Below, piece after piece: positions 33,686 to 59,672 of a DNA stretch of 64,000 nt. How positions within the stretch are numbered: the stretch's first letter is position 1; every line of letters starts with the position of its first letter. Source of the DNA: Desulfatiglandales bacterium (GTDB lineage: Bacteria; Desulfobacterota; DSM-4660; Desulfatiglandales; Desulfatiglandaceae); assembly GCA_963662465.1 (NCBI GenBank), contig OY759599.1:4544001-4608000 (forward strand), written 5' to 3'. The position numbers were made by a program, and so were the translations under genes. The notes beneath the pieces are model-generated. The model had not been told where the DNA came from. It made no database searches and saw only the letters and a program-made list of their open reading frames with translations.

Positions 33686-36600
33686 ATGTTTCGAAAAAAC
33701 CAAGATGGGTGGACATCCTCCACCAAGGTGGTCATCATTGCCGCCCTCATCTGGACCGGTCTGGTGGTTGTCTCCTGCTACTGGAACTGGACTCAAGTAA
33801 AACAATCCATGATGTCCCTGGCCGAATCCGAAGCCCAATCCAGTTTCAACAAGGACGTGGTCTATCGGAGGTGGGTAGCCCAGCAAGGGGGGGTATATGT
33901 CCACCCCTCTGAAAAAACCCCTCCCAATCCATATCTGGCCCATCTTCCCAACCGGGACCTGGTCACCACGTCAGGCCAAAATCTAACCCTGGTCAATCCG
34001 GCCTACATGACGCGCCAGGTCCATGAGATGGGAAAGGCGCAGTACGGGCTGAGAGGCCACATCACCAGCCTGACCCCCCTGCGTCCGGGAAACGCCCCGG
34101 ATATTTGGGAAAGCAAGGCCCTTCACGCCTTTGAGTCCGGCGCCCCGGAAGTGATTTCAATTGAGACCATTGAAGGGAAACCGTTTCTAAGATTCATGCG
34201 ACCGTTTTATACCGAACGATCCTGTCTGAAATGTCACGGCCACCAGGGCTACCGGGAAGGGGACATTCGGGGCGGCATCAGCCTTGCGGTTCCCCTTGGA
34301 CCCCATTTTGAGGAAATGAAACGGCAAAGGGCCCTGTTATTGACCGCCCATGTAGTGATCGGCCTTCTGGGTCTTTTCGGTCTGTGGATAGCAAACAGGC
34401 TGCTCTCTAGCTCGGAGATCAAAGTTCATGGATCCCACCACAGGCTCCACCAGATCATCGAGTTTCTACCCGACGCCACATTTGTCATCGACCGGGAAGG
34501 CCGGGTGGTGGCTTGGAACCGGGCCATTGAAGACTTGACCGGGGTCAAGGCGGAGGAGATGCTCGGCAAGGGCGATCATGAATACGCCCTCCCCTTCTAT
34601 AACAAACGCCGGCCGGTGATGATCGACCTGGTGATCGCGGACGATCATTCCCTGGATCACATGTACGCCTATGTCAAGCGGGATAAAGAGCGTTACGAAT
34701 CCGAATCCTTTATTCCCCACCTGAAACCCGGCGGCGCTTATCTATACAATACGGCCCGGGCCCTCTACGATGACGAGGGTCGCCTGATGGGCGCCATCGA
34801 GTCCATCAGAGACATCACGGATCAGAAAAAGGCCGAGGCGGCACTGGAAGAATCACGTCGTCAGCTCGCTGAGATCATAGACTTTTTTCCGGACGCCCTT
34901 TTTGTCATTGACAACCGGTCACAGGTGGTGGCATGGAACCGGGCCATGGAAGAATTAACCGACATTCCGGCTGAAACCATCATCGGCAAGGGGGACTACG
35001 AACATGCCCTGCCTTTTTACGGGGAACGAAGACCCATCCTCATTGATCTGGCCCTTTCCTGGGATGAACGTTATTTGGAAAAATATATCTCCGTCAAAAG
35101 GCGGGAAGACGGCGTGCTGATCTCCGAATCCTACCATCCCCATCTCAAAGGCGGCCTCTATCTTTCGGGAACGGCCCGTTTGCTTCGAAACGCTCAGGGG
35201 CAACCCCGGTGGGCCATTGAAAGCCTTCGGGATATCACGGCCATCAAAAAAGCGGAAATCACACTAAAAGCCGCCCGGCAGGCCGCCGAGGAGGCCAACC
35301 GCGCCAAAAGCGAGTTCCTGGCCAACATGAGCCACGAAATCCGAACGCCCTTAAACGGCGTGATCGGCATAACCAGCCTTCTGTTGGATGAAAACCTCAC
35401 GGACCAGCAACATTACTATGCTGAACTCGTGTACAAGAGTGGAGAAGCCCTGCTGACCATCATCAACGAAATCCTGGATTTTTCCAAGATTGAAGCGGGA
35501 AAGGTGGACCTGGAAACCCTTGATTTTGATCTTTACAGCCTCATGGACGATTTCATCTCGACCCTGGCCCCGCGCGCTCACGAAAAAGGTCTGGAACTGC
35601 TGTGCGGCATCGATCCCGAGGTTCCGGCCCTGCTTCGGAGCGACCCCGGACGTCTGCGGCAGATCCTCACCAACCTCGTCGGCAACGCCATCAAATTTAC
35701 CGAAAAGGGCGAGGTAGCGGTTCGGGTAGCCCTTGAATCCCAGGATAACGAATCGGTGACCCCGCGGTTCACCGTTCGGGATACGGGGATCGGCATTCCC
35801 GAAAACAGGATGTCATCGATCTTTGAAAAATTTACCCAGGCCGATGCCTCCACCACCCGCCGGTATGGCGGCACGGGCCTGGGACTTGCCATCACCCGCC
35901 TGCTGGTGGAACGTATGGGAGGCCGGATCGGAGTGGAGAGCAAAAAAGGCCAAGGCGCCACTTTCTGGTTTTGCCTGCCCCTGGCCCTACAACCCGGGAA
36001 AGCGAAAATTCAACTGCCTGGACCGGCTGAGATCCGGGGGCGCCGGATCCTGGTGGTGGATGACAATGCCACCAACCGCGAAATCCTCGTCCTGCGCCTG
36101 GGCGCCTGGGGCATGCGGCCCGTGGAAGCAGACGACGGCCTAGCGGGGCTTCAGGCCCTTGCCGATGGGCTGGCGGAGAAAGACCCCTTTAAAATCGTCC
36201 TGGTGGATATGCATATGCCCGGCATGGACGGGGCCGACTTTTGCCGGGCCGTCAAGGCGGACGCACGGTTCACGGACGTGCCCCTGGTACTCCTGACGTC
36301 CGTGGGGTTCCGGGGAGAAGCACGCCGGGTTCGGGAACTAGGCTTTTCAGGGTATCTCACCAAACCCGTCAGCCATTCGGATCTCTTTGACGTGCTGAAC
36401 CAGGTGATGATCGGCCGGAATGTCACACCCAAACCCCTTGTCACGCGCCATTCAACCCGGGAACTCAAGCGACTGAAAAACGTAACCGGGGCACGCATCC
36501 TTCTGGTGGAGGACAATATCACCAACCGGCAGGTAGCGTTGGGCATCCTTGAAAAACTGGGCCTGCAAACCGACACGGCGGAAAACGGCTTGGAGGCCCT

Positions 36601-37315
36601 AAAAGCCCTCGAGACCATCCCCTACGACCTGGTCCTCATGGACATCCAGATGCCGGAGATGGACGGGCTCACCGCTACCCGGAAAATTCGAAGCACGAAT
36701 ATGGAAATTCGAAACCTGCCCATCATCGCCATGACCGCCCATGCCCTTTCAGGCGACCGGGAAAGGTTCCTCGAAGCCGGGATGAACGATTACCTGGCCA
36801 AACCCATCAGCCCCCAGGGACTGGCCGATGTTCTGAGCCGATGGTTGCCGGAGGTCGGAGGTCAGAGGTCGGAAGACAGAGGTCGGAGGTCAGAGGTCAG
36901 AGGTCAGAGGTCGGAGGACGGAGGTGGGAAGTCGGAAGTCGGAGGGCGGGGGGCGGACGACGGAAATGCGGTATTCGATTCGGAGAGTTTCATGAAACGG
37001 GTGATGGGAGATGAAGCGCTCGGGCGTAAGGTAATGATCGGCTTTCTGGACGACATGCCCCGGCAGATGGCGATGTTAAAAGAATATATCGCGGCAAAGG
37101 ACAGCGTGGCGATTGAGCGTCAGGCCCACACCATCAAGGGCGCCATGGCCAATATGGGGGCGGAGACGGCACGTGGGTCGGCCTTTCAGATTGAAAAGGC
37201 CGGAAGGGCAAAGGACCCGGCATCCGCTGAAAAACATCTGAGTACACTGGAGACCGCTTTTGAAGCCCTAAAAAAAGAACTGGAACGGAAAATCAAGGAC
37301 TTTGATAACCGATAA
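33686..37315 (+). CDS. hybrid histidine kinase: periplasmic heme-c (DUF3365-like), 2 PAS, HisKA, HATPase, 2 REC, Hpt
   Basis: CLKCH; duplicated PAS (PDA.FVID..VVAWNRA); SHEIRTPL; two REC; AHTIKG. Confidence 0.93.
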   Translation: MFRKNQDGWTSSTKVVIIAALIWTGLVVVSCYWNWTQVKQSMMSLAESEAQSSFNKDVVYRRWVAQQGGVYVHPSEKTPPNPYLAHLPNRDLVTTSGQNLTLVNPAYMTRQVHEMGKAQYGLRGHITSLTPLRPGNAPDIWESKALHAFESGAPEVISIETIEGKPFLRFMRPFYTERSCLKCHGHQGYREGDIRGGISLAVPLGPHFEEMKRQRALLLTAHVVIGLLGLFGLWIANRLLSSSEIKVHGSHHRLHQIIEFLPDATFVIDREGRVVAWNRAIEDLTGVKAEEMLGKGDHEYALPFYNKRRPVMIDLVIADDHSLDHMYAYVKRDKERYESESFIPHLKPGGAYLYNTARALYDDEGRLMGAIESIRDITDQKKAEAALEESRRQLAEIIDFFPDALFVIDNRSQVVAWNRAMEELTDIPAETIIGKGDYEHALPFYGERRPILIDLALSWDERYLEKYISVKRREDGVLISESYHPHLKGGLYLSGTARLLRNAQGQPRWAIESLRDITAIKKAEITLKAARQAAEEANRAKSEFLANMSHEIRTPLNGVIGITSLLLDENLTDQQHYYAELVYKSGEALLTIINEILDFSKIEAGKVDLETLDFDLYSLMDDFISTLAPRAHEKGLELLCGIDPEVPALLRSDPGRLRQILTNLVGNAIKFTEKGEVAVRVALESQDNESVTPRFTVRDTGIGIPENRMSSIFEKFTQADASTTRRYGGTGLGLAITRLLVERMGGRIGVESKKGQGATFWFCLPLALQPGKAKIQLPGPAEIRGRRILVVDDNATNREILVLRLGAWGMRPVEADDGLAGLQALADGLAEKDPFKIVLVDMHMPGMDGADFCRAVKADARFTDVPLVLLTSVGFRGEARRVRELGFSGYLTKPVSHSDLFDVLNQVMIGRNVTPKPLVTRHSTRELKRLKNVTGARILLVEDNITNRQVALGILEKLGLQTDTAENGLEALKALETIPYDLVLMDIQMPEMDGLTATRKIRSTNMEIRNLPIIAMTAHALSGDRERFLEAGMNDYLAKPISPQGLADVLSRWLPEVGGQRSEDRGRRSEVRGQRSEDGGGKSEVGGRGADDGNAVFDSESFMKRVMGDEALGRKVMIGFLDDMPRQMAMLKEYIAAKDSVAIERQAHTIKGAMANMGAETARGSAFQIEKAGRAKDPASAEKHLSTLETAFEALKKELERKIKDFDNR
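36851..36948 (+). repeat. heptamer tandem repeat (GAGGTCR, 14 units) inside CDS
   Basis: gaggtcg/gaggtca/gaggtcg/gaagaca/... encodes EVGGQRSEDRGRRSEVRGQRSE linker. Confidence 0.9.
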
Positions 37316-37331
37316 GGGAGAATCAAAACAA

Positions 37332-37934
37332 ATGAAAATTCTCATTGCGGAAGATGACCTGACGTCGAGAACCCTGCTCAGTGGGATATTGGAGAAGTGG
37401 GGATATGAACCCATCGAGGCCACGGACGGGGAGACAGCATGGTGGATCATGCAACAGACGAATGCCCCGCCGCTGGTTATTTTAGACTGGATCATGCCGG
37501 GGATGGAAGGTCTGGAGGTAGTGCGCCGGGTCAGGGAGGTTGAAACGGAACGCCCGCCTTACATTATTCTTTTGACCAGCAAACAGGGAAAGGAGAATAT
37601 CATCACCGGGCTTGAGGTCGGCGCCAACGACTACATGGTCAAACCCTTCGATCCCGACGAACTTCGCGCCCGGGTACAGGTGGGACAGCGCATGGTGGAA
37701 ATCCAGGAACGGCTTCTGGCAAAGATGCAGGAATTGCAAAAGGCAGTGGATCATATCCAGAACCTGGAAAAGATACTCCCCATTTGCTCCTTCTGCAAAA
37801 AGATACGCGACGATGCCGGAAAATGGGAACAGGTGGAAGCCTATGTCTCCAAGAGATCAGGGGCGCTTTTTTCCCACGGCATCTGCCCTGAGTGCATGGC
37901 GAAACATTATCCCGATATAGACATGGATGCTTGA
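37332..37934 (+). CDS. response regulator with C-terminal CxxC/CxxC domain
   Basis: MKILIAEDD, LDWIMP, KPF; LPICSFCKKIRD...FSHGICPEC. Confidence 0.92.
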   Translation: MKILIAEDDLTSRTLLSGILEKWGYEPIEATDGETAWWIMQQTNAPPLVILDWIMPGMEGLEVVRRVREVETERPPYIILLTSKQGKENIITGLEVGANDYMVKPFDPDELRARVQVGQRMVEIQERLLAKMQELQKAVDHIQNLEKILPICSFCKKIRDDAGKWEQVEAYVSKRSGALFSHGICPECMAKHYPDIDMDA

Positions 37935-38023: not shown

Positions 38024-39313
38024 TTAACATGGCGCTTCGATACTTTCGGAACATTGATGCCTGGGAAGCCGAAGGCGAAAGCAGGCGCCCTGGTTTTCCT
38101 CTGAATCCACCGTGATGGAACCCTTGTGCTTATCCGTGATGATTTGATAGGCCAGGCTCAACCCCAGGCCGGTACCGCTGCCCACCGGTTTGGTGGTAAA
38201 GAAAGGATCAAAAATCTTATCTCGAATATTTTCGGGAATGCCGGGACCCGTGTCCTGAAATTCCAGGACCAGCCATTCTTCATCCTGCCGCCCACGAATG
38301 GTCAAGTCTCCGCCCGACGCCATGGCTTGGGCCCCATTGACAATGAGGTTCATGAACACCTGATTCAGGTCCGACGGATAACAGTCCAGGGGATCGAGAG
38401 GGTCCAGTTCCAGATGAACCCGTATCCCTCTTTTTCGCAGTTCCGAATCCGCGAGAGAAAGGGTGGAACAAAGGTTTTCCGCCACGTCAACGGTCTTTCG
38501 CTCGGCCTCATCCAGACGGGAAAAGGTCCTCAGATTCTGAACAATCTCTTTGACCCGCACGGCGCCTTCAAGGGACCCTTTGATCAGATCCGGAAAATCC
38601 TCCAGAACGAATTCCAGATCATGCGCCTCCCGCAAAGCGTCGAGGACCTGCCCCCCCTGCTCTCCCACCTTTTCCAGAAAAAGAGATTCCAGGCCCCCGT
38701 AGGCCGTAGAAAGATCGGAAAAAGATTCCTTCAGGCTGTGCAGGTTACTGATCACAAACCCAATGGGGTTGTTCACCTCGTGGGCCACTCCCGCCACCAG
38801 TTGACCCAGGGCCGTCATTTTCTCCGCATGAATCAACATGGCCTGGGTTTCCCGCAGTTCTTTAAGGGTTTGTTCCAGGAGGGTATTCTTCTTGATCAAC
38901 TGACGCTGAAGGTTGTTGATTTCCCGGTTCATGGCCGTCATCCGGGTATTGATCATATCCAGCTCAGCCACGTCATACTCCGCGGCAATCAGAACCTGGT
39001 CCCGGCGTCGATAGACCCTTGCCCGCGTACTTCGAGATTGCTCCAGGCCGTTCCCGGTGGTGAAAAAGCCTTCGAAAACGGGTCGGTCCCGAGCCGGTTC
39101 CGCGACCAGCTTTTCAAAGGACGGGTTCACCAGGGATTGGGCGGGAACTCCCGTTTCGCCGTCAACAGCCAGAAGATCAACCATCCCGTCGTTGGCGTAA
39201 ATGAGCCGTCCCGTCAGGTCAAAAACCCCAAGTGCCAGTGAGGTTGTTTTCCGGAGCAGCTCGGGAAGCAGATCAATCCAAATCCCGGGCAGTGGCGTCA
39301 TGGAAAGAGGCAT
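38024..39313 (-). CDS. cytoplasmic histidine kinase (PAS-like, coiled coil, HisKA, HATPase)
   Basis: [38 protein letters not shown]. Confidence 0.92.
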
Positions 39314-39324
39314 GTGGTTTTCTC

Positions 39325-39552
39325 GTAACCGTTCACGGTTGCCGGTTCACGGTTTTTCAATAAATTATGGGTTTCCTTCATACAGATTTACACTTTCTTG
39401 ATGAATCGTTTTTTCAATTTTAATGAAGGATGCGGAATTATGTTGGGATTGATAACCGCAATTTTTTAAATCTTCACAAGAGGACCCCATAATCTTCCGT
39501 TATCCTCTGTTTTTCAACCGTAAACCGGCAACCGTAAACCGTGAACGGTTAC
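39325..39552. mobile_element. 228-bp MITE with heptamer-built terminal inverted repeats and 8-bp target duplication
   Basis: 16-bp perfect TIR GTAACCGTTCACGGTT; GTTTTCTC at 39317-39324 and 39553-39560; AT-rich non-coding core. Confidence 0.9.
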
Positions 39553-39566
39553 GTTTTCTCTCGGCA

Positions 39567-40034
39567 TCAGGGGGTGTGGGACACATCCATCTCATCCATC
39601 CGCACGTCTGAAAGAATCGTAAAATCGGGAATATGAACAATAAACCAATGGTAGAGGGGGTACACCGCCGCCGCGGCGGATGGCGTGAGGGTCTTTTTCA
39701 AAACATCCACCCAGGTGTTGAGCTGGGCCGACCAGTAGGTGCTGTGGAACCCCCGGGACCGATAGGCCCGGAATACCCACAGACAGGTTTCCACCAGGGT
39801 CTGCGCATCCGGTTTTTGCAGGATGGCCGCCACAAACCGTGCATGGTTGGCATGGTTGTCCTTCATGACATCCAGGTTGTTTTCCCCCACCAGCGCCATA
39901 ATATCGGAACGTTCCAGCATGAGCTCATTGATCATGCCCACCATCTGCTCCCGCCTCTCCGCATATTCACCCAGCACCTCGGGAGATACCTTCGGGATTT
40001 CTTCCGCCGTTGCCAATAGTTGTTCCTTGTTCAT
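39567..40034 (-). CDS. all-helical globin/phycobiliprotein-like protein (putative bilin or heme binder)
   Basis: AGGAGG RBS before ATG 40034; DNHANHARFVAAIL..D...L....W....Y.SRG pattern; next to B12-domain gene. Confidence 0.6.
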   Translation of the reverse strand: MNKEQLLATAEEIPKVSPEVLGEYAERREQMVGMINELMLERSDIMALVGENNLDVMKDNHANHARFVAAILQKPDAQTLVETCLWVFRAYRSRGFHSTYWSAQLNTWVDVLKKTLTPSAAAAVYPLYHWFIVHIPDFTILSDVRMDEMDVSHTP

Positions 40035-40056
40035 ACCTGATTCCTCCTTGAGAGAT

Positions 40057-40734
40057 TCATTTTGAATCCGGATCCATCCCATCTGTTTTTAAAATGAACT
40101 GTTTCAACTCTCCCAGCGATGAAAGATGAATTACATCAGGATAAGGGTCCACCACATTTCCGCCCCCGTGGCGAAAAGCCTGCCCCCCGATGAGAACGGG
40201 AAGCTTCGGGAAACGCTTCCGCAATGCATTCAACATTTTTTCCAGATCTCCCATGTGAAAGTATACACTCAGGGAGATACCCACCAGGTCCGGTTCCACT
40301 TCATCAATAAACCGCACCAACTCAAAGGTTGGCGTGTTGGCGCCCAGATAAAGGCTGTCCCATCCCTGCATCTCAAATACATCGGCCGCCATCTTCGCGC
40401 CCACCTGGTGCATTTCATTTTCAGCGGATGCCACAATGACCTTTTTCCCCCTGCGGTGGGGCGAAATCACCCGGCTGTAGAGCTGGTTCATGAACCCCTC
40501 GGTAATGGAGGTGGCCATATGTTCCGTGGCTACGGAAATCCGGTTCATTTCCCACAGTTCACCCACCCGGTATAGAGAGCGCTGGAACAGACCTTCGTAA
40601 AGGGGGATAATGGGCCGGTTTTCGCGGTTCTCTTCCGCCAGAATCCGTGCGCATTCCGCCCGATCCCCTTGAATCAGGGCCGAAAGATATCGCTGATAAG
40701 CTTCATCTGAAACAAACTTCTCCCGTGCCGTCAT
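40057..40734 (-). CDS. stand-alone CarH-type cobalamin-binding domain protein
   Basis: W-x9-EH (WEMNRISVATEH), E-x-H-x2-G (EMHQVG), LGANTP, GISLS, LIGG. Confidence 0.92.
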   Translation of the reverse strand: MTAREKFVSDEAYQRYLSALIQGDRAECARILAEENRENRPIIPLYEGLFQRSLYRVGELWEMNRISVATEHMATSITEGFMNQLYSRVISPHRRGKKVIVASAENEMHQVGAKMAADVFEMQGWDSLYLGANTPTFELVRFIDEVEPDLVGISLSVYFHMGDLEKMLNALRKRFPKLPVLIGGQAFRHGGGNVVDPYPDVIHLSSLGELKQFILKTDGMDPDSK

Positions 40735-40740
40735 CTCACC

Positions 40741-42897
40741 TTAACTCCCTTTTCCTGCTTTATCAAAAACCCATTTCTCCAGCATTTCGTACACCAGTTC
40801 CCGTTTCACCGGTTTGCTCATGTAATCATTCATGCCCGCCTCCATGCAACGGGCGCGGTCCCCCTCCATGGCGCCGGCGGTCATGGCAATAATGGGGAGA
40901 TCATTGAACCCGGCGTCACGAATGGCGCGCGTCGCCTCCAGACCGTCCATTTCAGGCATCATGACGTCCATGAGAACCAAATCAAAAGCCTGGGGTTGTT
41001 CCAGGACCTTTTCCACCGCAATCTTTCCGTTTTCAACCACGGTTACCTGGTAACCGGCCTTTGACAACATGATTTTTGCCAGTTTCTGGTTTACGGGGTT
41101 GTCTTCGGCCAGGAGAATCCGTGCGGCACGCTTGGCGTCTTCCCGTACGGAATACTGGGTCATGATGACGTGGGGTTGCGCACCGGTCTTTTCCTGTTCC
41201 GGGAGTTTCCACTTTTCCCCGAAAATCCGCCGCAGCATCTGGAACAGTTTTTTTCGCTGAAGGGGCTTGTTGAGGAACCCGTCAAAGCCGGCCTCCGCAC
41301 ATCTTCTGGCATCCCGCTGCATAACCGAGGAGAGGGCAATCAGGGGCAGGCCTTTGAAATCCGCCACTTTTCGAATCCCTTCGGCCACCCCGTAACCGCT
41401 GATCTCGGGCATCTGGATATCGATGATACAGAAATCATAGGGAGATTTCCTTTCGCGTCCCTCTCTAAGGACATCCACCACCCCGCTGCTCCGATCCAGT
41501 GCCGTCACATGAATCCGCGCCATTTCCAACACATATCTCAGAATATCCAGGTTGCTCTGGTTATCATCCACAATGAGCGCCTTCTTACCACTCAGGGAGA
41601 CCGTTTCAAAACGCGGGGGTTCCGCCGCTTCGGCAATTTCCATTTGCGCCGTAAAATGGAATCGGCTCCCCTTCCCCGGTTCGCTTTCCACCCAGATATC
41701 GCCGCCCAGCAACCGTACGATCTGTTTGCAGATGGCGAGGCCCAGGCCCGTCCCCCCGAACCGGCGGGTGGTGGAACCATCCGCCTGCCGAAAGGGTTCA
41801 AAGATACTCTCAAGCTTATCCACGGGAATACCGATGCCCGTATCGCGCACCACCACATGCAGGGTTAATCGATCCTCCCTTTCCTCCCGAACCTGCAGAC
41901 GCAATTCAATTTCACCTTCTTCGGTAAATTTGGAGGCATTGCCCATGAGGTTCACGATCACCTGGCGGAGGCGGCCTGGATCCCCTTTGAGTCGGTACGG
42001 CAGGTTGTTGTCAATGCGGCACAGAATCTCCACTGCTCCCGAGCCGACCCGCGGACGAATCATGTGGCACACGTCATAGGCCAGAAGTTCGGGGTCAAAC
42101 TCTATGAAATCCAGTTCCATCTCCCCGGATTCCACCTTGGAAAAGTCGAGGATATCATTGATCAGCGTCAGGAGCGCCTCACCGCTCTTTTTGATGGTTT
42201 CACCATAATCCACCTGTTCCTCATTGAGAGACGTATCCATGAGCATTTCCGTAAATCCGATAACCGCATTCATGGGGGTTCGAATTTCATGGCTCATGGT
42301 GGCCAGAAAACGGCTTTTTGCCTGAGCAGCCATATCCGCCGCCCGCTTGGCCGCCCGCAAATCCACTTCCACCTGCTTACGTCTGTCAATCTCCGATTCA
42401 AGAACCCGGTTGGCGGTGACCAGTTCCGCGGTCCGATCCGCCACCCGCTGCTCCAGTGTTTCATTGGTTTTTTGGAGTTCCGCCACCAATGTTCGGTTTT
42501 CCTGAACCAGACGGTAGTGTTCAAAGGCCTGCTGAACCACCGTTTCCAGCTCGGTGGGTTCCCAGGGTTTTCCCAGGTAATGAAAGACGTCCCCGTCGTT
42601 CACCGCTGAAATAACAGCCTCGATGTCAGAATAGCCGGTCAGGAGGATGCGGACGGTATCGGGATAGTCTTTTTTCAGACAGTAAAACAGTTCCGCCCCC
42701 GTCATACCCGGCATGCGCTGATCGGAAATAACCACCTGCGCCGGCTTTTCCCTCATGCGCAAACACGCCTCTTCGGCACTTTCCGCCATGACAACACTGT
42801 ATTTTTTTCGAAAAAGCCGGCGAAGGGACCGCACCACTTCCTTTTCGTCATCCACCAGAAGCAAAATTTTCGGATCAGCTTGGGAAACATCAACCAT
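40741..42897 (-). CDS. hybrid histidine kinase REC-HisKA-HATPase-REC-REC
   Basis: LLVDDE/SDQRMP, SHEIRTP, GTGLGL, two more REC domains; start reassigned to ATG 42897. Confidence 0.92.
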   Translation of the reverse strand: MVDVSQADPKILLLVDDEKEVVRSLRRLFRKKYSVVMAESAEEACLRMREKPAQVVISDQRMPGMTGAELFYCLKKDYPDTVRILLTGYSDIEAVISAVNDGDVFHYLGKPWEPTELETVVQQAFEHYRLVQENRTLVAELQKTNETLEQRVADRTAELVTANRVLESEIDRRKQVEVDLRAAKRAADMAAQAKSRFLATMSHEIRTPMNAVIGFTEMLMDTSLNEEQVDYGETIKKSGEALLTLINDILDFSKVESGEMELDFIEFDPELLAYDVCHMIRPRVGSGAVEILCRIDNNLPYRLKGDPGRLRQVIVNLMGNASKFTEEGEIELRLQVREEREDRLTLHVVVRDTGIGIPVDKLESIFEPFRQADGSTTRRFGGTGLGLAICKQIVRLLGGDIWVESEPGKGSRFHFTAQMEIAEAAEPPRFETVSLSGKKALIVDDNQSNLDILRYVLEMARIHVTALDRSSGVVDVLREGRERKSPYDFCIIDIQMPEISGYGVAEGIRKVADFKGLPLIALSSVMQRDARRCAEAGFDGFLNKPLQRKKLFQMLRRIFGEKWKLPEQEKTGAQPHVIMTQYSVREDAKRAARILLAEDNPVNQKLAKIMLSKAGYQVTVVENGKIAVEKVLEQPQAFDLVLMDVMMPEMDGLEATRAIRDAGFNDLPIIAMTAGAMEGDRARCMEAGMNDYMSKPVKRELVYEMLEKWVFDKAGKGS

Positions 42898-42960
42898 GAC
42901 GTTTCTCCCCCAAAGAGGTTTCGAAAAAACCGGCAAAACAACAAAAGGCCATTACGTTAT

Positions 42961-44232: not shown

Positions 44233-45162
44233 TTACGTTAAACCGAGTTTCCTGAATCTCTCATGGAGGAGATCCATGTATTGCGTTTTCATGGCATTAG
44301 ATAAAAAACATTTTTGAATCAGATCAGTCCATATGGGAAATGCCTTTACGATGCGACCTATCGTTTGTTCTATGGATTTTTGGGATAAATCGAGGCGTGT
44401 TTTTGCGAAGTACACGAAAAAATCATCCTTCTTCAGTTTATTTTTCTTGCCGCCCAGCGGCAATGCAAGCTCTTCCCGAGCATTTAAAATAATCGTTGTG
44501 TTCAAGAGATCATAAGCCGGTGAGAGTTCGACTTTCAGATCGCGGCAGATCACGGAGAAATTTTTTAGATGCATATCTTCATTTCCAACGAGATAATTAA
44601 AAAGGGTTAGCGTAAACAGTTTTAATTTTTCAATGGCCGGAAATGTGCAGAACTGTTCGATAAGGGATATCACCTGCTCCATGGACGAATCATATTTGGT
44701 GTTTCGGTCTTTTCCGGAAAGCTGAGCGAAATCTTCGACCGGTATTTTTTTGTTTCTGCCCACTCGATCAAAACGCCGGATGAAATAGGTCATGGCGCCA
44801 TCTTTAGAATACACCAAACCCTGCAAGGGGGTCTCAATCCCAATGAGTTTCGCCAACCGCATGGTCACATCTTCATTTTCCGGAACTTCCCTGTAATTCT
44901 GCGTTTGCGGTTTAAAAATATAGCGTCCGCCTGTGTCCACAATCTCAAAAATCTCATTTCTTAAATTCAAGCGCACACTTAATTTGGGTTGAACCCCTTG
45001 AATTGATATTTTGGCGGCCCTGGCAATTGCCTCTCTAACCTGCTCCTCGGCGGAAAAGGGGAAATCTTTCAATGACTTCAATCTGGGTGAGAGTTTTTTC
45101 AAACCCTTAAGAGAATACTTGCCGCCTTCACATGCCTCGTAGGTAATGGGACATCGTCTCAT
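44233..45162 (-). CDS. HipA-family kinase toxin, C-terminal-only (HipT-like)
   Basis: SIQGVQPK, RRFDR, EDFAQ, GNEDMHLKN, LSPAYD. Confidence 0.9.
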   Translation of the reverse strand: MRRCPITYEACEGGKYSLKGLKKLSPRLKSLKDFPFSAEEQVREAIARAAKISIQGVQPKLSVRLNLRNEIFEIVDTGGRYIFKPQTQNYREVPENEDVTMRLAKLIGIETPLQGLVYSKDGAMTYFIRRFDRVGRNKKIPVEDFAQLSGKDRNTKYDSSMEQVISLIEQFCTFPAIEKLKLFTLTLFNYLVGNEDMHLKNFSVICRDLKVELSPAYDLLNTTIILNAREELALPLGGKKNKLKKDDFFVYFAKTRLDLSQKSIEQTIGRIVKAFPIWTDLIQKCFLSNAMKTQYMDLLHERFRKLGLT

Positions 45163-45473
45163 TCTTTTTTCTCCTGAACGGTAACAGCGCCCACCAGATC
45201 ATTTCCCACTGCGATTAACTGACTTAAATAATTAAATTTATCAATTTTCCGCTGCCTCAAAAGACCTTCAAGAAGCGGTCCCTCCGGCAGCAGGCCATCG
45301 AAAAACGGCGGAAAACGGTCAAACATAAATTCTTTTCCGTCCGTCGGCATGGTTAACGCAATTGAAGGCCCCCTATATTTTTCAAAATATGCAAACCGGT
45401 ATTTTTTTCCGGCTTCTATTTCCTGTAAAATACCGGCCGGCACACCATGCATCGATACCTCAGCGCTTTTCAT
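45159..45473 (-). CDS. HipA N-terminal (couple_hipA) domain protein, HipS-like
   Basis: AGIL..YRF.Y...IALTMP..FPPFFDGLLPEG...VGAV; ATGA overlap with kinase. Confidence 0.88.
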   Translation of the reverse strand: MKSAEVSMHGVPAGILQEIEAGKKYRFAYFEKYRGPSIALTMPTDGKEFMFDRFPPFFDGLLPEGPLLEGLLRQRKIDKFNYLSQLIAVGNDLVGAVTVQEKKE

Positions 45474-58974: not shown

Positions 58975-59322
58975 TTAAGCACCCGGTTCCCTTTCTCTCA
59001 AATCCAGGCCCACCAGCACACGTTCCGTGTTGGACAGGTCGCCGATAATGCGCCGCAACGGAAGCGGCAATTCCTTGATCAGGGTAGGCATGGCCACGAT
59101 CTGTTCCTTTTTCAGTATTCCGGGTTCTTGAAAGGTGTCGATGACCTCCAGCTCGAAACGGCCCTTCAAGTGTTCCTGGCAGATCTGTTTGATATTGCTG
59201 ATGGCCAGCATCGATCTGGGCGTGGTGCCGGTCACGTACAATCGCAGAAGGTAGGTCTTTAGGCTTTTCTGCTTCACGGCGTTTTCGAAATCTCTGGATA
59301 CATCCCTGGGTTGTTCGACCAT
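58975..59322 (-). CDS. kaiB: KaiB family protein
   Basis: YLLRLYVTG.TPRS..A...LEVID..P......I.AMPTLIKELP.PLRRIIGDLS. Confidence 0.95.
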   Translation of the reverse strand: MVEQPRDVSRDFENAVKQKSLKTYLLRLYVTGTTPRSMLAISNIKQICQEHLKGRFELEVIDTFQEPGILKKEQIVAMPTLIKELPLPLRRIIGDLSNTERVLVGLDLREREPGA

Positions 59323-59339: not shown

Positions 59340-59672
59340 CTATAATTTTTGTTTTCTAAGATCCAGCCCCACCAGAACACGTTCCGTGTTTTTTAGAGAA
59401 CCGATGATTCTTTTCATCGGCGGCGGCAGTTTCCTGACCAGTGTGGGAATGGCGAGAATCTGGTCGCCTTTGGCCAATTCGGGGTTTTTCAAGAGATCGA
59501 TCACCTCGATTTTGTAACGTCCTTTCAGCTCCTGTTCACAGATCTTTTTGAGGTTTTCAAACGCCTTCACGCAGTTGGGGGTTTGGCCGGCCACGTAAAG
59601 CCGCAGGGACCACTTATTGCCATTATCCATGTCTTCCATCACTGTTTCCGGTTCCTGTTGTTTCATGACCAT
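59340..59672 (-). CDS. kaiB: KaiB family protein
   Basis: [10 protein letters not shown]...[42 protein letters not shown] before ATG 59672. Confidence 0.95.

Follow-up and report, generated by a model that had tools for sequence, protein, structure and literature searches.

We identified, within the 64-kb stretch of DNA analysed in this study (the window), a conserved cassette of a B12-binding protein and a photoglobin-like globin. With a probability of about one half, the two proteins constitute a two-piece version of a photocobilin, which we predict to regulate the neighbouring PAS kinase in trans. Sensors of this split B12/globin kind are already in print (Schneider et al. 2021; Rockwell et al. 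2023; Zhang et al. 2024). The idea of a split photocobilin came from an earlier, sequence-only reading of the window and survived in part: the globin fold of the small protein and the conservation of the B12/globin pair were borne out and fused relatives of the pair exist, whereas the Asp which holds the bilin in photocobilins aligns with an Asn and the closest fusions have their domains in reverse order.

Organization of the cluster

The four ORFs which that reading had described as a minus-strand cluster (hybrid kinase, B12 protein, 155-aa protein and soluble kinase) were all found at the positions given below, together with a repeat.

40741..42936, minus strand: hybrid histidine kinase HK2, 731 aa; REC1, coiled coil, HisKA (H216), HATPase_c, REC2, REC3 (Pfam)
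40057..40734, minus strand: stand-alone B12-binding protein of the CarH/photocobilin type, 225 aa; four-helix cap and Rossmann domain (Pfam)
39567..40034, minus strand: stand-alone globin-fold protein, photoglobin-like, 155 aa (AF2 model, Foldseek/VIA)
39331..39552, no strand assigned: MITE-like repeat, ~222 nt; 32-nt terminal inverted repeats at 39324-39355 and 39522-39553
38024..39313, minus strand: soluble histidine kinase HK1, 429 aa; divergent PAS (about 10-112), long helix (115-164), HisKA (H178), HATPase_c (Pfam, AF2)

The B12 and globin ORFs are separated by the stop codon plus 22 nt, and a ribosome-binding site (AAGGAGG) precedes the ATG of the globin gene at position 40034.

B12-binding protein

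The Pfam analysis detected only B12-binding_2 (PF02607, 1.8e-12) and B12-binding (PF02310, 3.3e-18) in this protein, both exceeding the Pfam cut-offs, which bears out the view that it has no output domain. The two motifs attributed to it, W-x9-EH and E-x-H-x2-G, are indeed present (W61-x9-E71-H72 and E107-x-H109-x2-G112). All six motif residues are identical in each of the 79 aligned B12 proteins of the module, so the motifs are not a product of chance; G131 is likewise invariant and P135 is conserved in at least 90% of these proteins. The best NCBIfam match is CarH, with a score under the CarH cut-off, and the closest solved structures are photocobilins (8J2W, 8J2X and 8J2Y; E 5e-18), followed by MetH (8e-10) and CarH (9e-10). 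The protein is predicted to bind AdoCbl through H109 and a pocket formed by W61, E71 and H72, and the genome contains CobA/CobO adenosyltransferases for the supply of this cofactor. To our knowledge, light sensing is the sole regulatory use of the Wx9EH adenosyl pocket.

The light signature reported for SignatureFinder comprises GxxW, EH, GxxH and GxxxP (PMC11796333). When these motifs were assigned to positions (the mapping is ours), GxxW (G58..W61), EH and GxxxP (G131..P135) were seen in the window protein; in the case of GxxH, position 106 is Asn here and Gly in 12 of the 79 proteins.

Globin-fold protein

No family was matched by the 155-aa protein in Pfam or NCBIfam. Its AF2 model (pLDDT 94.9) was compared with known structures, and the Foldseek and VIA matches (globins, phycobiliproteins and the photocobilin globin domain) substantiate the suggestion that the protein has a globin/phycobiliprotein-type fold. 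Among the 50 VIA matches listed, numbers 1-49 are globin-type folds (globins, phycobiliproteins and designed relatives). The model aligns with the globin domains of the photocobilins SasPcob and AbDPcob at Z 10.6 and 8.9; in the former alignment (8J2W_B, rmsd 3.0, 117 aligned) model residues 17-141 lie on residues 227-345 of the chain. The sensor globins matched were DosC (Z 12.6), RsbR (12.3), a Thermosynechococcus globin domain (8h17, 11.9), Geobacter GCS (11.6), Bordetella GCS (11.0) and AfGcHK (10.8). In these model-based comparisons photocobilin, sensor globins and phycobiliproteins match about equally, and structure does not tell a photoglobin from a sensor globin.

The globin family has an invariant D59-N60-H61-x-N63-H64 (DNHxNH) motif, as well as W86; H61 and H64 are invariant both in the close family and in 20/20 globin-B12 fusions. 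The histidines of the window protein are located at positions 61, 64, 97, 129, 134 and 153. None lies within residues 77-93, the helix corresponding to helix F of globins, nor is any His conserved there in the family alignment (A1), which means that the proximal His typical of heme sensor globins is lacking and that the protein resembles photoglobins in having a globin fold without heme-ligating histidines. None of the 112 family members examined is covered by a Pfam model or matches Protoglobin, and a single one gives a weak match to Globin (E 0.026). In an ESM-Atlas neighbour cluster PF00502 occurs on 19% of members, which we treat only as a lead.

The A1 family profile found no matches in the PDB. 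A wider profile, which included fused relatives and also matched AerR (7TE2), gave a second stretch on the globin domain of 8J2W (9.7 bits, independent E 2.6, not significant alone). Its register, which agrees with the structural ranges, places N60 on Asp270 and W86 on Trp296. The segment which had been described as photocobilin-like, H..F.AA.....D........W......SRG, is present (H64, F67, A69, A70, D76, W86 and S93-R94-G95), except that the spacing from D to W is 9 and not 8. The resemblance to photocobilins is seen in the weak HMM alignment to 8J2W, which extends over this segment and matches its DP..L...W......RG portion. D76 is not the biliverdin-binding Asp, whose counterpart is N60.

The biliverdin-holding Asp (D270 of SasPcob, D87 of phycocyanin) thus aligns with N60, in a register that could be off by one residue. 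Position 60 is Asn in 103/110 stand-alone and 20/20 fused relatives, and D59, next to it, shows invariance only within the close family; where photoglobins have their characteristic Asp, on core helix three, the aligned residue here is Asn60. At the attachment site of phycobiliproteins, the globin-fold protein lacks a Cys. Neither heme oxygenase nor bilin reductase was found in the complete genome, and of 50 genomes bearing the module just two have a heme oxygenase. The globin probably carries no bound biliverdin. It is more likely to act as a cap or adapter, or to bind another ligand through the histidines of DNHxNH.

Distribution and conserved neighbourhood

The globin family comprises 298 relatives in species genomes and 576 representative clusters, the latter including globin-B12 fusions. 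We surveyed the neighbourhoods of 80 loci, to which all synteny counts refer. In 78 of them the B12 gene precedes the globin gene on the same strand (the remaining two have no upstream DNA), and in 72 of these 78 the two are directly adjacent, which corroborates the expectation that the two genes are kept as neighbours and agrees with the occurrence of photoglobins beside, or fused to, B12-binding_2/B12-binding domains. Bacteroidota dominate among the carriers of the module, which include aerobic Flavobacteriaceae (e.g. Lutibacter, Gelidibacter and Gillisia); judging from record titles, the module is also common in sediment anaerobes.

Among the best 150 representative hits there are 20 proteins of 300-382 aa with an N-terminal globin. 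All ten relatives of 366-382 aa that were tested contain B12-binding_2 and B12-binding, and the fused relatives have Wx9EH in 18/20 and ExHxxG in 19/20 cases. The order of the genes in the window had been said to match that of the fused domains, but these closest fused relatives run globin-B12, which is the reverse.

Kinases

The B12/globin pair had been placed between two kinases, and both proved to be recurrent partners. A kinase with the same divergent PAS as HK1 starts from -60 to +400 nt downstream of the globin gene in 64/80 loci, and in 19/80 this PAS kinase is directly followed by a REC which shares 45% identity or more with REC1 of HK2.

The H-boxes are HEVNNP at 178 in HK1 and HEIRTP at 216 in HK2. 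Residues 1-165 of HK1 were modelled with a pLDDT of 84.8, and nearly all Foldseek matches of this part are PAS domains. The N-terminal 160 aa of HK1 share 27-43% identity with 63 of the 64 downstream kinases and 75% with that of the closest relative (locus L001). This identity persists where the kinase catalytic core is only ~20% identical, and in the short-kinase class the PAS is more identical than the core. We predict that the B12/globin pair acts directly on HK1. A paralogous locus of the same genome lacks a globin: its B12-binding protein shares the motifs and 46% identity with that of the window, and the kinase which follows has a PAS of the type seen in HK1 (hhalign 94.7%, E 6e-8). This arrangement suggests that the core of the module is the pair formed by the B12-binding protein and the PAS kinase.

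In locus L016 the gene after the PAS kinase encodes a REC-HK-REC protein with which HK2 shares 41% identity over 576 aa; with a REC-HK of L077, HK2 shares 36% over 417 aa. REC1 of HK2 is a recurrent fourth partner of the module. HK2 is predicted to be the second kinase of a cascade, in which REC1 would be likely to accept phosphate from HK1. The proposal of REC1 as acceptor is based on synteny, in the above 19 loci only.

Comparison with known systems

The photocobilins SasPcob and AbDPcob, the closest solved relatives of the B12 protein, likewise combine a CarH-type AdoCbl domain with a globin. This domain is N- or C-terminal in different forms and, in the case of a stand-alone photocobilin, an enzyme is regulated in trans (Zhang et al. 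2024, PMC10979010). Trp296, with which W86 of our globin aligns, contacts both corrin and biliverdin, and His at the position of Asp270 in AbPcob results in weaker biliverdin binding (PMC10979010). The system described here differs in that the two parts are encoded by separate genes and not by one polypeptide, in having Asn60 at the Asp270 position in a genome without heme oxygenase, and in its dedicated PAS histidine kinase, where photocobilins have a diguanylate cyclase output or no known partner.

The architecture found here is that of the stand-alone photoglobins which, in the account given by Schneider et al. (2021, PMC8717448; a survey of 5975 sequences), are almost always located beside B12-binding_2/B12-binding and two-component genes, fused photoglobins having the globin ahead of or behind the B12 domains. 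The lineages named in section 3.3 of that survey are actinobacteria, firmicutes, proteobacteria, chloroflexi and archaea, without the Bacteroidota which dominate in our set; none of the loci of that survey was subjected to experiment. A separate globin gene adjoining a separate gene of a B12-binding protein is also shared with the BBAG-2 clusters of Myxococcales, which contain in addition a pre-2 bilin reductase (Rockwell et al. 2023, PMC10151467). BBAG-2 proteins bind biliverdin and have bilin reductase and often heme oxygenase as neighbours, and photoglobins branch inside the BBAG-2 lineage in the tree presented there (PMC10151467). In our case kinases are the partners, and neither enzyme was found in the genome.

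CarH (Thermus/Myxococcus) and AerR have the same B12-binding_2 and B12-binding module with Wx9EH, and AerR works in trans on another protein. In contrast to CarH, the window protein has no DNA-binding domain and its partner is a kinase. In TtCarH, the His after Trp forms the bis-His light state (PMC11796333), whereas W61 is followed here by Glu.

Proposed mechanism and alternative explanations

In the two-piece photocobilin proposed above, AdoCbl would be held by the B12 protein, with the globin docked on the corrin edge via W86, in the manner of Trp296. Breakage of the Co-C bond, for which green/UV light is the likeliest cause, would alter the pair, and the altered state would be read by the module-specific PAS of HK1. 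HK1 might then phosphorylate REC1 of HK2, which would start a multi-step relay.

The same wiring could alternatively respond to a dark stimulus (corrinoid availability or form, the redox state of cobalt, O2, or a tetrapyrrole bound by DNHxNH), light playing no part. We regard this as possible, though rather unlikely; the caution of the sequence-only reading that the stimulus need not be light still applies. The genome carries dsrA, i.e. the host is a sulfate reducer, which makes its exposure to light uncertain. No photolyase or phytochrome PHY domain was found in this genome, and the dark stimulus is further favoured by the scarcity of heme oxygenase among carriers, the lack of both this enzyme and bilin reductase in the genome itself, the frequency of sediment anaerobes, the replacement of the bilin-holding Asp, and the invariance of H61 and H64, which suggests a non-bilin ligand. 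On the other hand, all 79 proteins retain Wx9EH, the pocket in which the light-labile adenosyl group sits, and the module is carried by aerobic Flavobacteriaceae; seven KaiB-family ORFs, two of them within the window, hint at a day-night lifestyle. A related and more doubtful possibility is a bilin-free B12/globin sensor, in which, with Asn in place of Asp, the DNHxNH histidines would reach the upper face of cobalamin or hold a non-bilin ligand, and the cassette would inform a dedicated PAS kinase cascade of the corrinoid/redox state, or of light sensed by B12 alone, in anaerobes unable to make biliverdin. Should it be true, B12-based sensing would here be linked to two-component signalling for the first time.

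It is very unlikely that the small protein is a heme gas/redox sensor acting in trans (a split globin-coupled sensor), with the B12-like protein serving either as adapter or as a SCHIC-type domain which binds heme. The best structural matches are sensor globins (DosC, 8h17, Geobacter GCS), two histidines are invariant in the family, and 3/112 members, with a fused B12 part, weakly match AppA_SCHIC; nevertheless, the helix F equivalent is devoid of His, Pfam Globin and Protoglobin are practically unrepresented in the family, and the B12 proteins all keep the cobalt-ligating His and the adenosyl pocket. We also considered the case, recognized in the sequence-only reading as one that would contradict it, of a corrinoid methyl-carrier of a methyltransferase system, the kinases being unrelated neighbours. 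Weak NCBIfam matches to MtaC, MtbC and MtgC (E 1e-7 to 1e-3) and the solved corrinoid proteins among the profile matches are in keeping with such a role, which we nonetheless judge extremely improbable: the MtaC/MtbC-type scores of 19-31 bits are far under the cut-offs (215-450), no methyltransferase gene occurs in 13 annotated neighbourhoods or in the window cluster, CarH and photocobilins are better family and structure matches, and both the invariant Wx9EH and the kinase partner conserved in most loci argue against it. Membership of the MtaC/MtbC type was accordingly rejected.

MITE-like repeat and transcripts

The MITE-like repeat, which has at least nine near-full-length copies (95-99% identity), plus fragments, elsewhere in the same genome, fills the 253 nt which separate HK1 from the globin gene. 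The corresponding gap in the closest relative (L001) is 18 nt, and at the other loci with a downstream kinase most kinases begin within ~60 nt of the end of the globin gene (maximum 992 nt, in L038). The insertion may uncouple the expression of the globin gene and HK1 in this strain.

Contigs from RNA libraries of one aquatic study cover parts of each of the four genes of a close relative, a weak hint of expression given possible DNA carry-over. One of these contigs bridges the junction from the stop of the B12 gene to the start of the globin gene.

The gene cluster

The sequence-only reading of this region had proposed a split photocobilin-like B12/bilin sensor wired between two histidine kinases. 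Our analysis upheld a split B12/globin sensor tied to kinases, but not the bilin part of that proposal. The cluster itself was confirmed as it had been described, both in its four open reading frames (ORFs) with their Pfam domains and in the motifs of the B12 protein:

40741-42936 (-), hybrid kinase HK2, 731 aa, Pfam REC-HisKA-HATPase_c-REC-REC (first receiver, REC1)
40057-40734 (-), B12 protein, 225 aa, Pfam B12-binding_2 and B12-binding, no further domain
39567-40034 (-), small protein, 155 aa from the ATG at 40034, with AAGGAGG 5' of the ATG
38024-39313 (-), soluble kinase HK1, 429 aa, Pfam HisKA and HATPase_c

Pieces of all four genes are covered (90-98% identity) by metatranscriptome contigs from two runs of one aquatic study, and one 186-nt RNA-library contig bridges the stop of the B12 gene and the start of the globin gene. 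These contigs come from a relative, may include carried-over DNA, provide no expression levels and are uninformative for uncovered stretches; they give a weak hint that the cassette is expressed.

The B12 protein

The six residues of the motifs W61-x9-E71-H72 and E107-x-H109-x2-G112 are identical in 79 of 79 proteins (the window protein and 78 orthologues from related loci). The best NCBIfam match is CarH (9e-17, under the cut-off), and models of corrinoid methyl carriers score 19-31 bits against cut-offs of 215-450. The top solved relatives are the photocobilins 8J2W, 8J2X and 8J2Y together with the CarH-like CtMerR (8JBS), at E-values of 5e-18 to 9e-18; CarH and methionine synthase rank behind them, both near 1e-9. 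Of the light signature set out in PMC11796333 (GxxW, EH, GxxH, GxxxP), all elements are present except GxxH (N106). The protein also differs from TtCarH, in which a His after the Trp gives the bis-His light state, whereas here W61 is followed by an invariant Glu.

The small protein

The small protein was matched by no model in Pfam or NCBIfam, and searches of the PDB by sequence (phmmer and the family profile A1) gave chance-level matches only. The first search for its family recovered 155 proteins, all of about 150 aa and either unnamed or named hypothetical; residues D59, N60, H61, N63, H64, W86, R89, Y91, Y100, W101, W108, Y128 and W130 are invariant across 39 diverse members.

The AlphaFold2 model, built with the family alignment as input, is all-helical (mean pLDDT 94.9). 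Foldseek matched it in the PDB to allophycocyanins and globins (TM ~0.6, E ~0.02), and an exhaustive VIA structure search returned almost only globin-fold chains in rows 1-49 of the best 50 listed. Among the matches listed were the DosC globin (Z 12.6), RsbR (12.3), globin-coupled sensors (~11-12) and phycobiliproteins (~11). The globin domain of photocobilin 8J2W_B scored Z 10.6 (rmsd 3.0, 117 residues, model 17-141 on chain 227-345), and 8J2Y_B scored 8.9. The model and both structure searches thus agree with the globin/phycobiliprotein type suggested earlier, and we regard the predicted globin fold as settled, while the subfamily is not, because the structure scores are tied. Since no histidine occurs in residues 77-93, the helix matching globin helix F, the small protein is not a classical heme globin.

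Relationship to photocobilins and photoglobins

When 1.84 billion representatives were searched with a profile of the small-protein family, 576 clusters matched at E <= 1e-3. Among the best 150 matches, 20 are proteins of 300-382 aa in which the small-protein domain is N-terminal; in all ten scanned proteins of 366-382 aa it is followed by B12-binding_2 and B12-binding, and the motifs Wx9EH and ExHxxG occur in 18 and 19 of the 20, respectively. Judged by their sequences, these long relatives are naturally occurring fused versions of the two window genes, with the globin ahead of B12. Photocobilin groups are described as carrying the AdoCbl domain at either end (PMC10979010), and fused photoglobins as having the globin before or after the B12 domains (Schneider et al., PMC8717448).

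The profile that includes the fusions matches 8J2W at 1.4e-41, and a second, weak stretch (9.7 bits, independent E 2.6) falls on its globin domain, placing N60 on chain-index D264 and W86 on W290. Judged from W61/E71/H72, the numbering of the photocobilin paper equals the chain index plus 6, and D264 and W290 therefore correspond to Asp270, which binds biliverdin, and Trp296, which contacts the corrin. The VIA ranges and the profile alignment give the same offset of 210.

Residues at selected positions of the small protein among its stand-alone and fused relatives
Position 59, Asp: 55/110 stand-alone, 14/20 fused
Position 60, Asn: 103/110 stand-alone, 20/20 fused
Position 61, His: 77/110 stand-alone, 20/20 fused
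Position 64, His: 80/110 stand-alone, 20/20 fused
Position 86, Trp: 104/110 stand-alone, 20/20 fused

Because of these counts, the corrin-edge Trp appears to be kept in the wider family and the pigment-holding Asp to be replaced. The sequence evidence for a link to photocobilin globins is not significant by itself; taken together, sequence, fold, register, fusions and synteny make a photoglobin-type ancestry of the small protein likely.

Conserved neighbourhood and kinases

The small-protein family was found in 298 species genomes, from which 80 loci were kept for analysis. The carriers are mainly Bacteroidales/Marinilabiliales and Desulfobacterales, with further ones among Flavobacteriaceae, Clostridia, Lentisphaerae, spirochaetes, Ignavibacteriae and Gammaproteobacteria. 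The neighbourhood survey showed the B12/globin pair to be conserved: in 78 of the 80 loci the B12 gene is found upstream in the same orientation (directly adjacent in 72, with gaps of 154-291 nt in three and with an intervening kinase gene in three), and the other two loci start 171 and 361 nt before the match, without upstream DNA. In two gammaproteobacterial loci (L015 and L008), the B12 gene is preceded by an Hsp70-like/DUF3731 "DnaK-related" gene pair and no kinase.

Of the 80 loci, 64 have a kinase gene resembling HK1 that starts between -60 and +400 nt from the end of the globin gene. In 63 of these 64 kinases, the first 160 residues share 27-43% identity with those of HK1 (75% in the closest relative, L001), and this identity persists in the short-kinase class, whose core is only ~20% identical, and at one locus with a HisKA_2 core. 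The region is barely seen by Pfam (PAS_9 in 9 of 38 members, best E 0.0013); in HK1 it is modelled as a PAS fold with a long helix (pLDDT 84.8), for which Foldseek matches are almost all PAS (best E 5e-4). What is specific to the module in this kinase is thus its PAS domain.

HK2 shares 41% identity over 576 aa with the REC-HK-REC protein encoded after the PAS kinase in a Desulfobacterales locus (L016), and 36% over 417 aa with the REC-HK at a Gelidibacter locus, where the MASE3 kinase upstream reaches only 35% over 411 aa with the REC not included. A receiver at least 45% identical to REC1 is encoded directly after the PAS kinase in 19 of 80 loci, all in the ~420-aa kinase class to which HK1 belongs, and in two further loci the receiver at this place is 42-43% identical to REC1 and belongs to a REC-PAS-HK or a REC-PAS-GGDEF protein. 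In the window, this REC-kinase partner lies upstream of the B12 gene instead. From synteny alone we infer that HK1 phosphorylates REC1 of HK2. The distance matrices of the globin, B12 and kinase parts correlate (Spearman 0.52-0.70), which is uninformative because shared phylogeny alone yields such values.

A globin-less paralogue

The same genome carries a paralogous locus at ~8.06 Mb (L099), with the gene order PAS-rich hybrid kinase, B12 protein, 384-aa kinase, response regulator and hybrid kinase. Its central genes are:

L099 5410-6069, B12 protein, 46% identical to that of the window, Wx9EH and ExHxxG kept
L099 6044-7198, 384-aa kinase directly after the B12 gene, N-terminus matching the HK1 PAS profile (hhalign 94.7%, E 6e-8)

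In or near this locus, no globin turned up in the ORF list, by Pfam or in one hhalign comparison, and the globin family has a single match in the whole genome. This suggests that the module has the B12 protein and PAS kinase at its core and that the globin is an accessory to them.

Bilin, light and signalling

The genome, a single contig of 8.16 Mb rated 100% complete, lacks heme oxygenase (PF01126) and ferredoxin-dependent bilin reductase, and its only matches to the HutW/ChuW anaerobic heme-degrading enzyme are HemN-like and under the cut-off; no biliverdin route through these enzyme types was found. Heme oxygenase was detected in only two of 50 module-bearing genomes, many of which are incomplete MAGs, and in none of the seven named isolates in this set.

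A module-bearing Desulfobacteraceae genome encodes a 426-aa protein (L097 1962-3242, minus strand) in which a heme oxygenase is fused to a conserved C-terminal domain of ~230 aa. This domain also occurs alone (~213 aa), and neither Pfam nor the PDB gave a sequence match for it; it is best described as an unnamed family tied to heme oxygenase. As a bridge to classical photoglobins this fusion proved a dead end, with no family-level relation: a DP...W...RG motif is shared in single-sequence hhalign (E 0.29), and the profile of the domain family (A5, 19 sequences) matches A1 with a probability of 1.9% and has no PDB match. The ORFs beside a second heme oxygenase (L098) also showed no relation to A1.

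We propose, with a probability of about 0.5, that the B12 protein would perform AdoCbl-based sensing, probably of light, with the globin as its cap or adapter, and that the PAS domain of HK1 would read the signal and HK1 pass it to HK2. The main rival, the same wiring with a dark stimulus, seems to us possible but rather unlikely. The genome encodes CobA/CobO adenosyltransferases and dsrA, and no photolyase or PHY domain was found in it. It also holds seven KaiB-family ORFs, unexpected clock genes in a sulfate reducer without photolyase. Two of these, both above the Pfam cut-off, lie inside the window (59002-59244 and 59361-59603, both minus strand).

To our knowledge, the B12-based photoreceptors characterized by experiment are all either transcription factors (CarH, AerR) or cyclase-fused photocobilins, and the literature searched contained no kinase-coupled example. 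Schneider et al. (PMC8717448) defined photoglobins computationally and noted that stand-alone forms almost always adjoin B12-binding and two-component genes, no such locus having been studied experimentally; Rockwell et al. (PMC10151467) reported that Myxococcales carry B12-binding and globin (BBAG-2) genes separately, and demonstrated biliverdin binding by BBAG-2; and Zhang et al. (PMC10979010) determined structures of fused photocobilins and demonstrated regulation in trans. Systems of this general kind are therefore already published. New here are the definition of a four-part cassette that includes a PAS kinase of its own and a REC-kinase partner that recurs, a globin pocket of the DNHxNH/Asn type, the finding that carriers almost all lack heme oxygenase, the paralogous locus without a globin, and a MITE insertion. 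Compact, spread over ~300 species of several phyla and offering a clear read-out (kinase autophosphorylation and phosphotransfer), the cassette is a practical test system, for which the paralogue in its own genome is a natural control. It is suited to asking whether trans signalling occurs in a split B12/globin pair, what role a globin plays where biliverdin cannot be made, and whether light is sensed by sulfate reducers and anaerobic Bacteroidota.

The MITE-like element and other nearby features

The 253-nt gap between the globin and HK1 genes (39314-39566) contains a MITE-like element of ~222 nt with 32-nt terminal inverted repeats. The chromosome holds at least nine further copies that are nearly full-length (95-99% identity), along with many fragments. 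It is a recent, mobile element that may bring a promoter or terminator with it. In the other loci with a downstream kinase, most kinase genes start within ~60 nt of the globin end (18 nt in L001, the closest relative); gaps reach 992 nt at most.

Converging on the cassette is a response regulator gene (37302-37934, plus strand), which overlaps the end of a gene for a 1209-aa Tll0287-like/PAS hybrid kinase with Hpt (33686-37315); the C-terminal ~80 residues of the regulator form a Cys-rich CxxC...HGxCPxC tail with no Pfam match. At 44233-45473 (-), two overlapping ORFs of 104 and 309 aa resemble, on inspection by eye, the N-terminal and kinase pieces of a split HipA-type kinase toxin.
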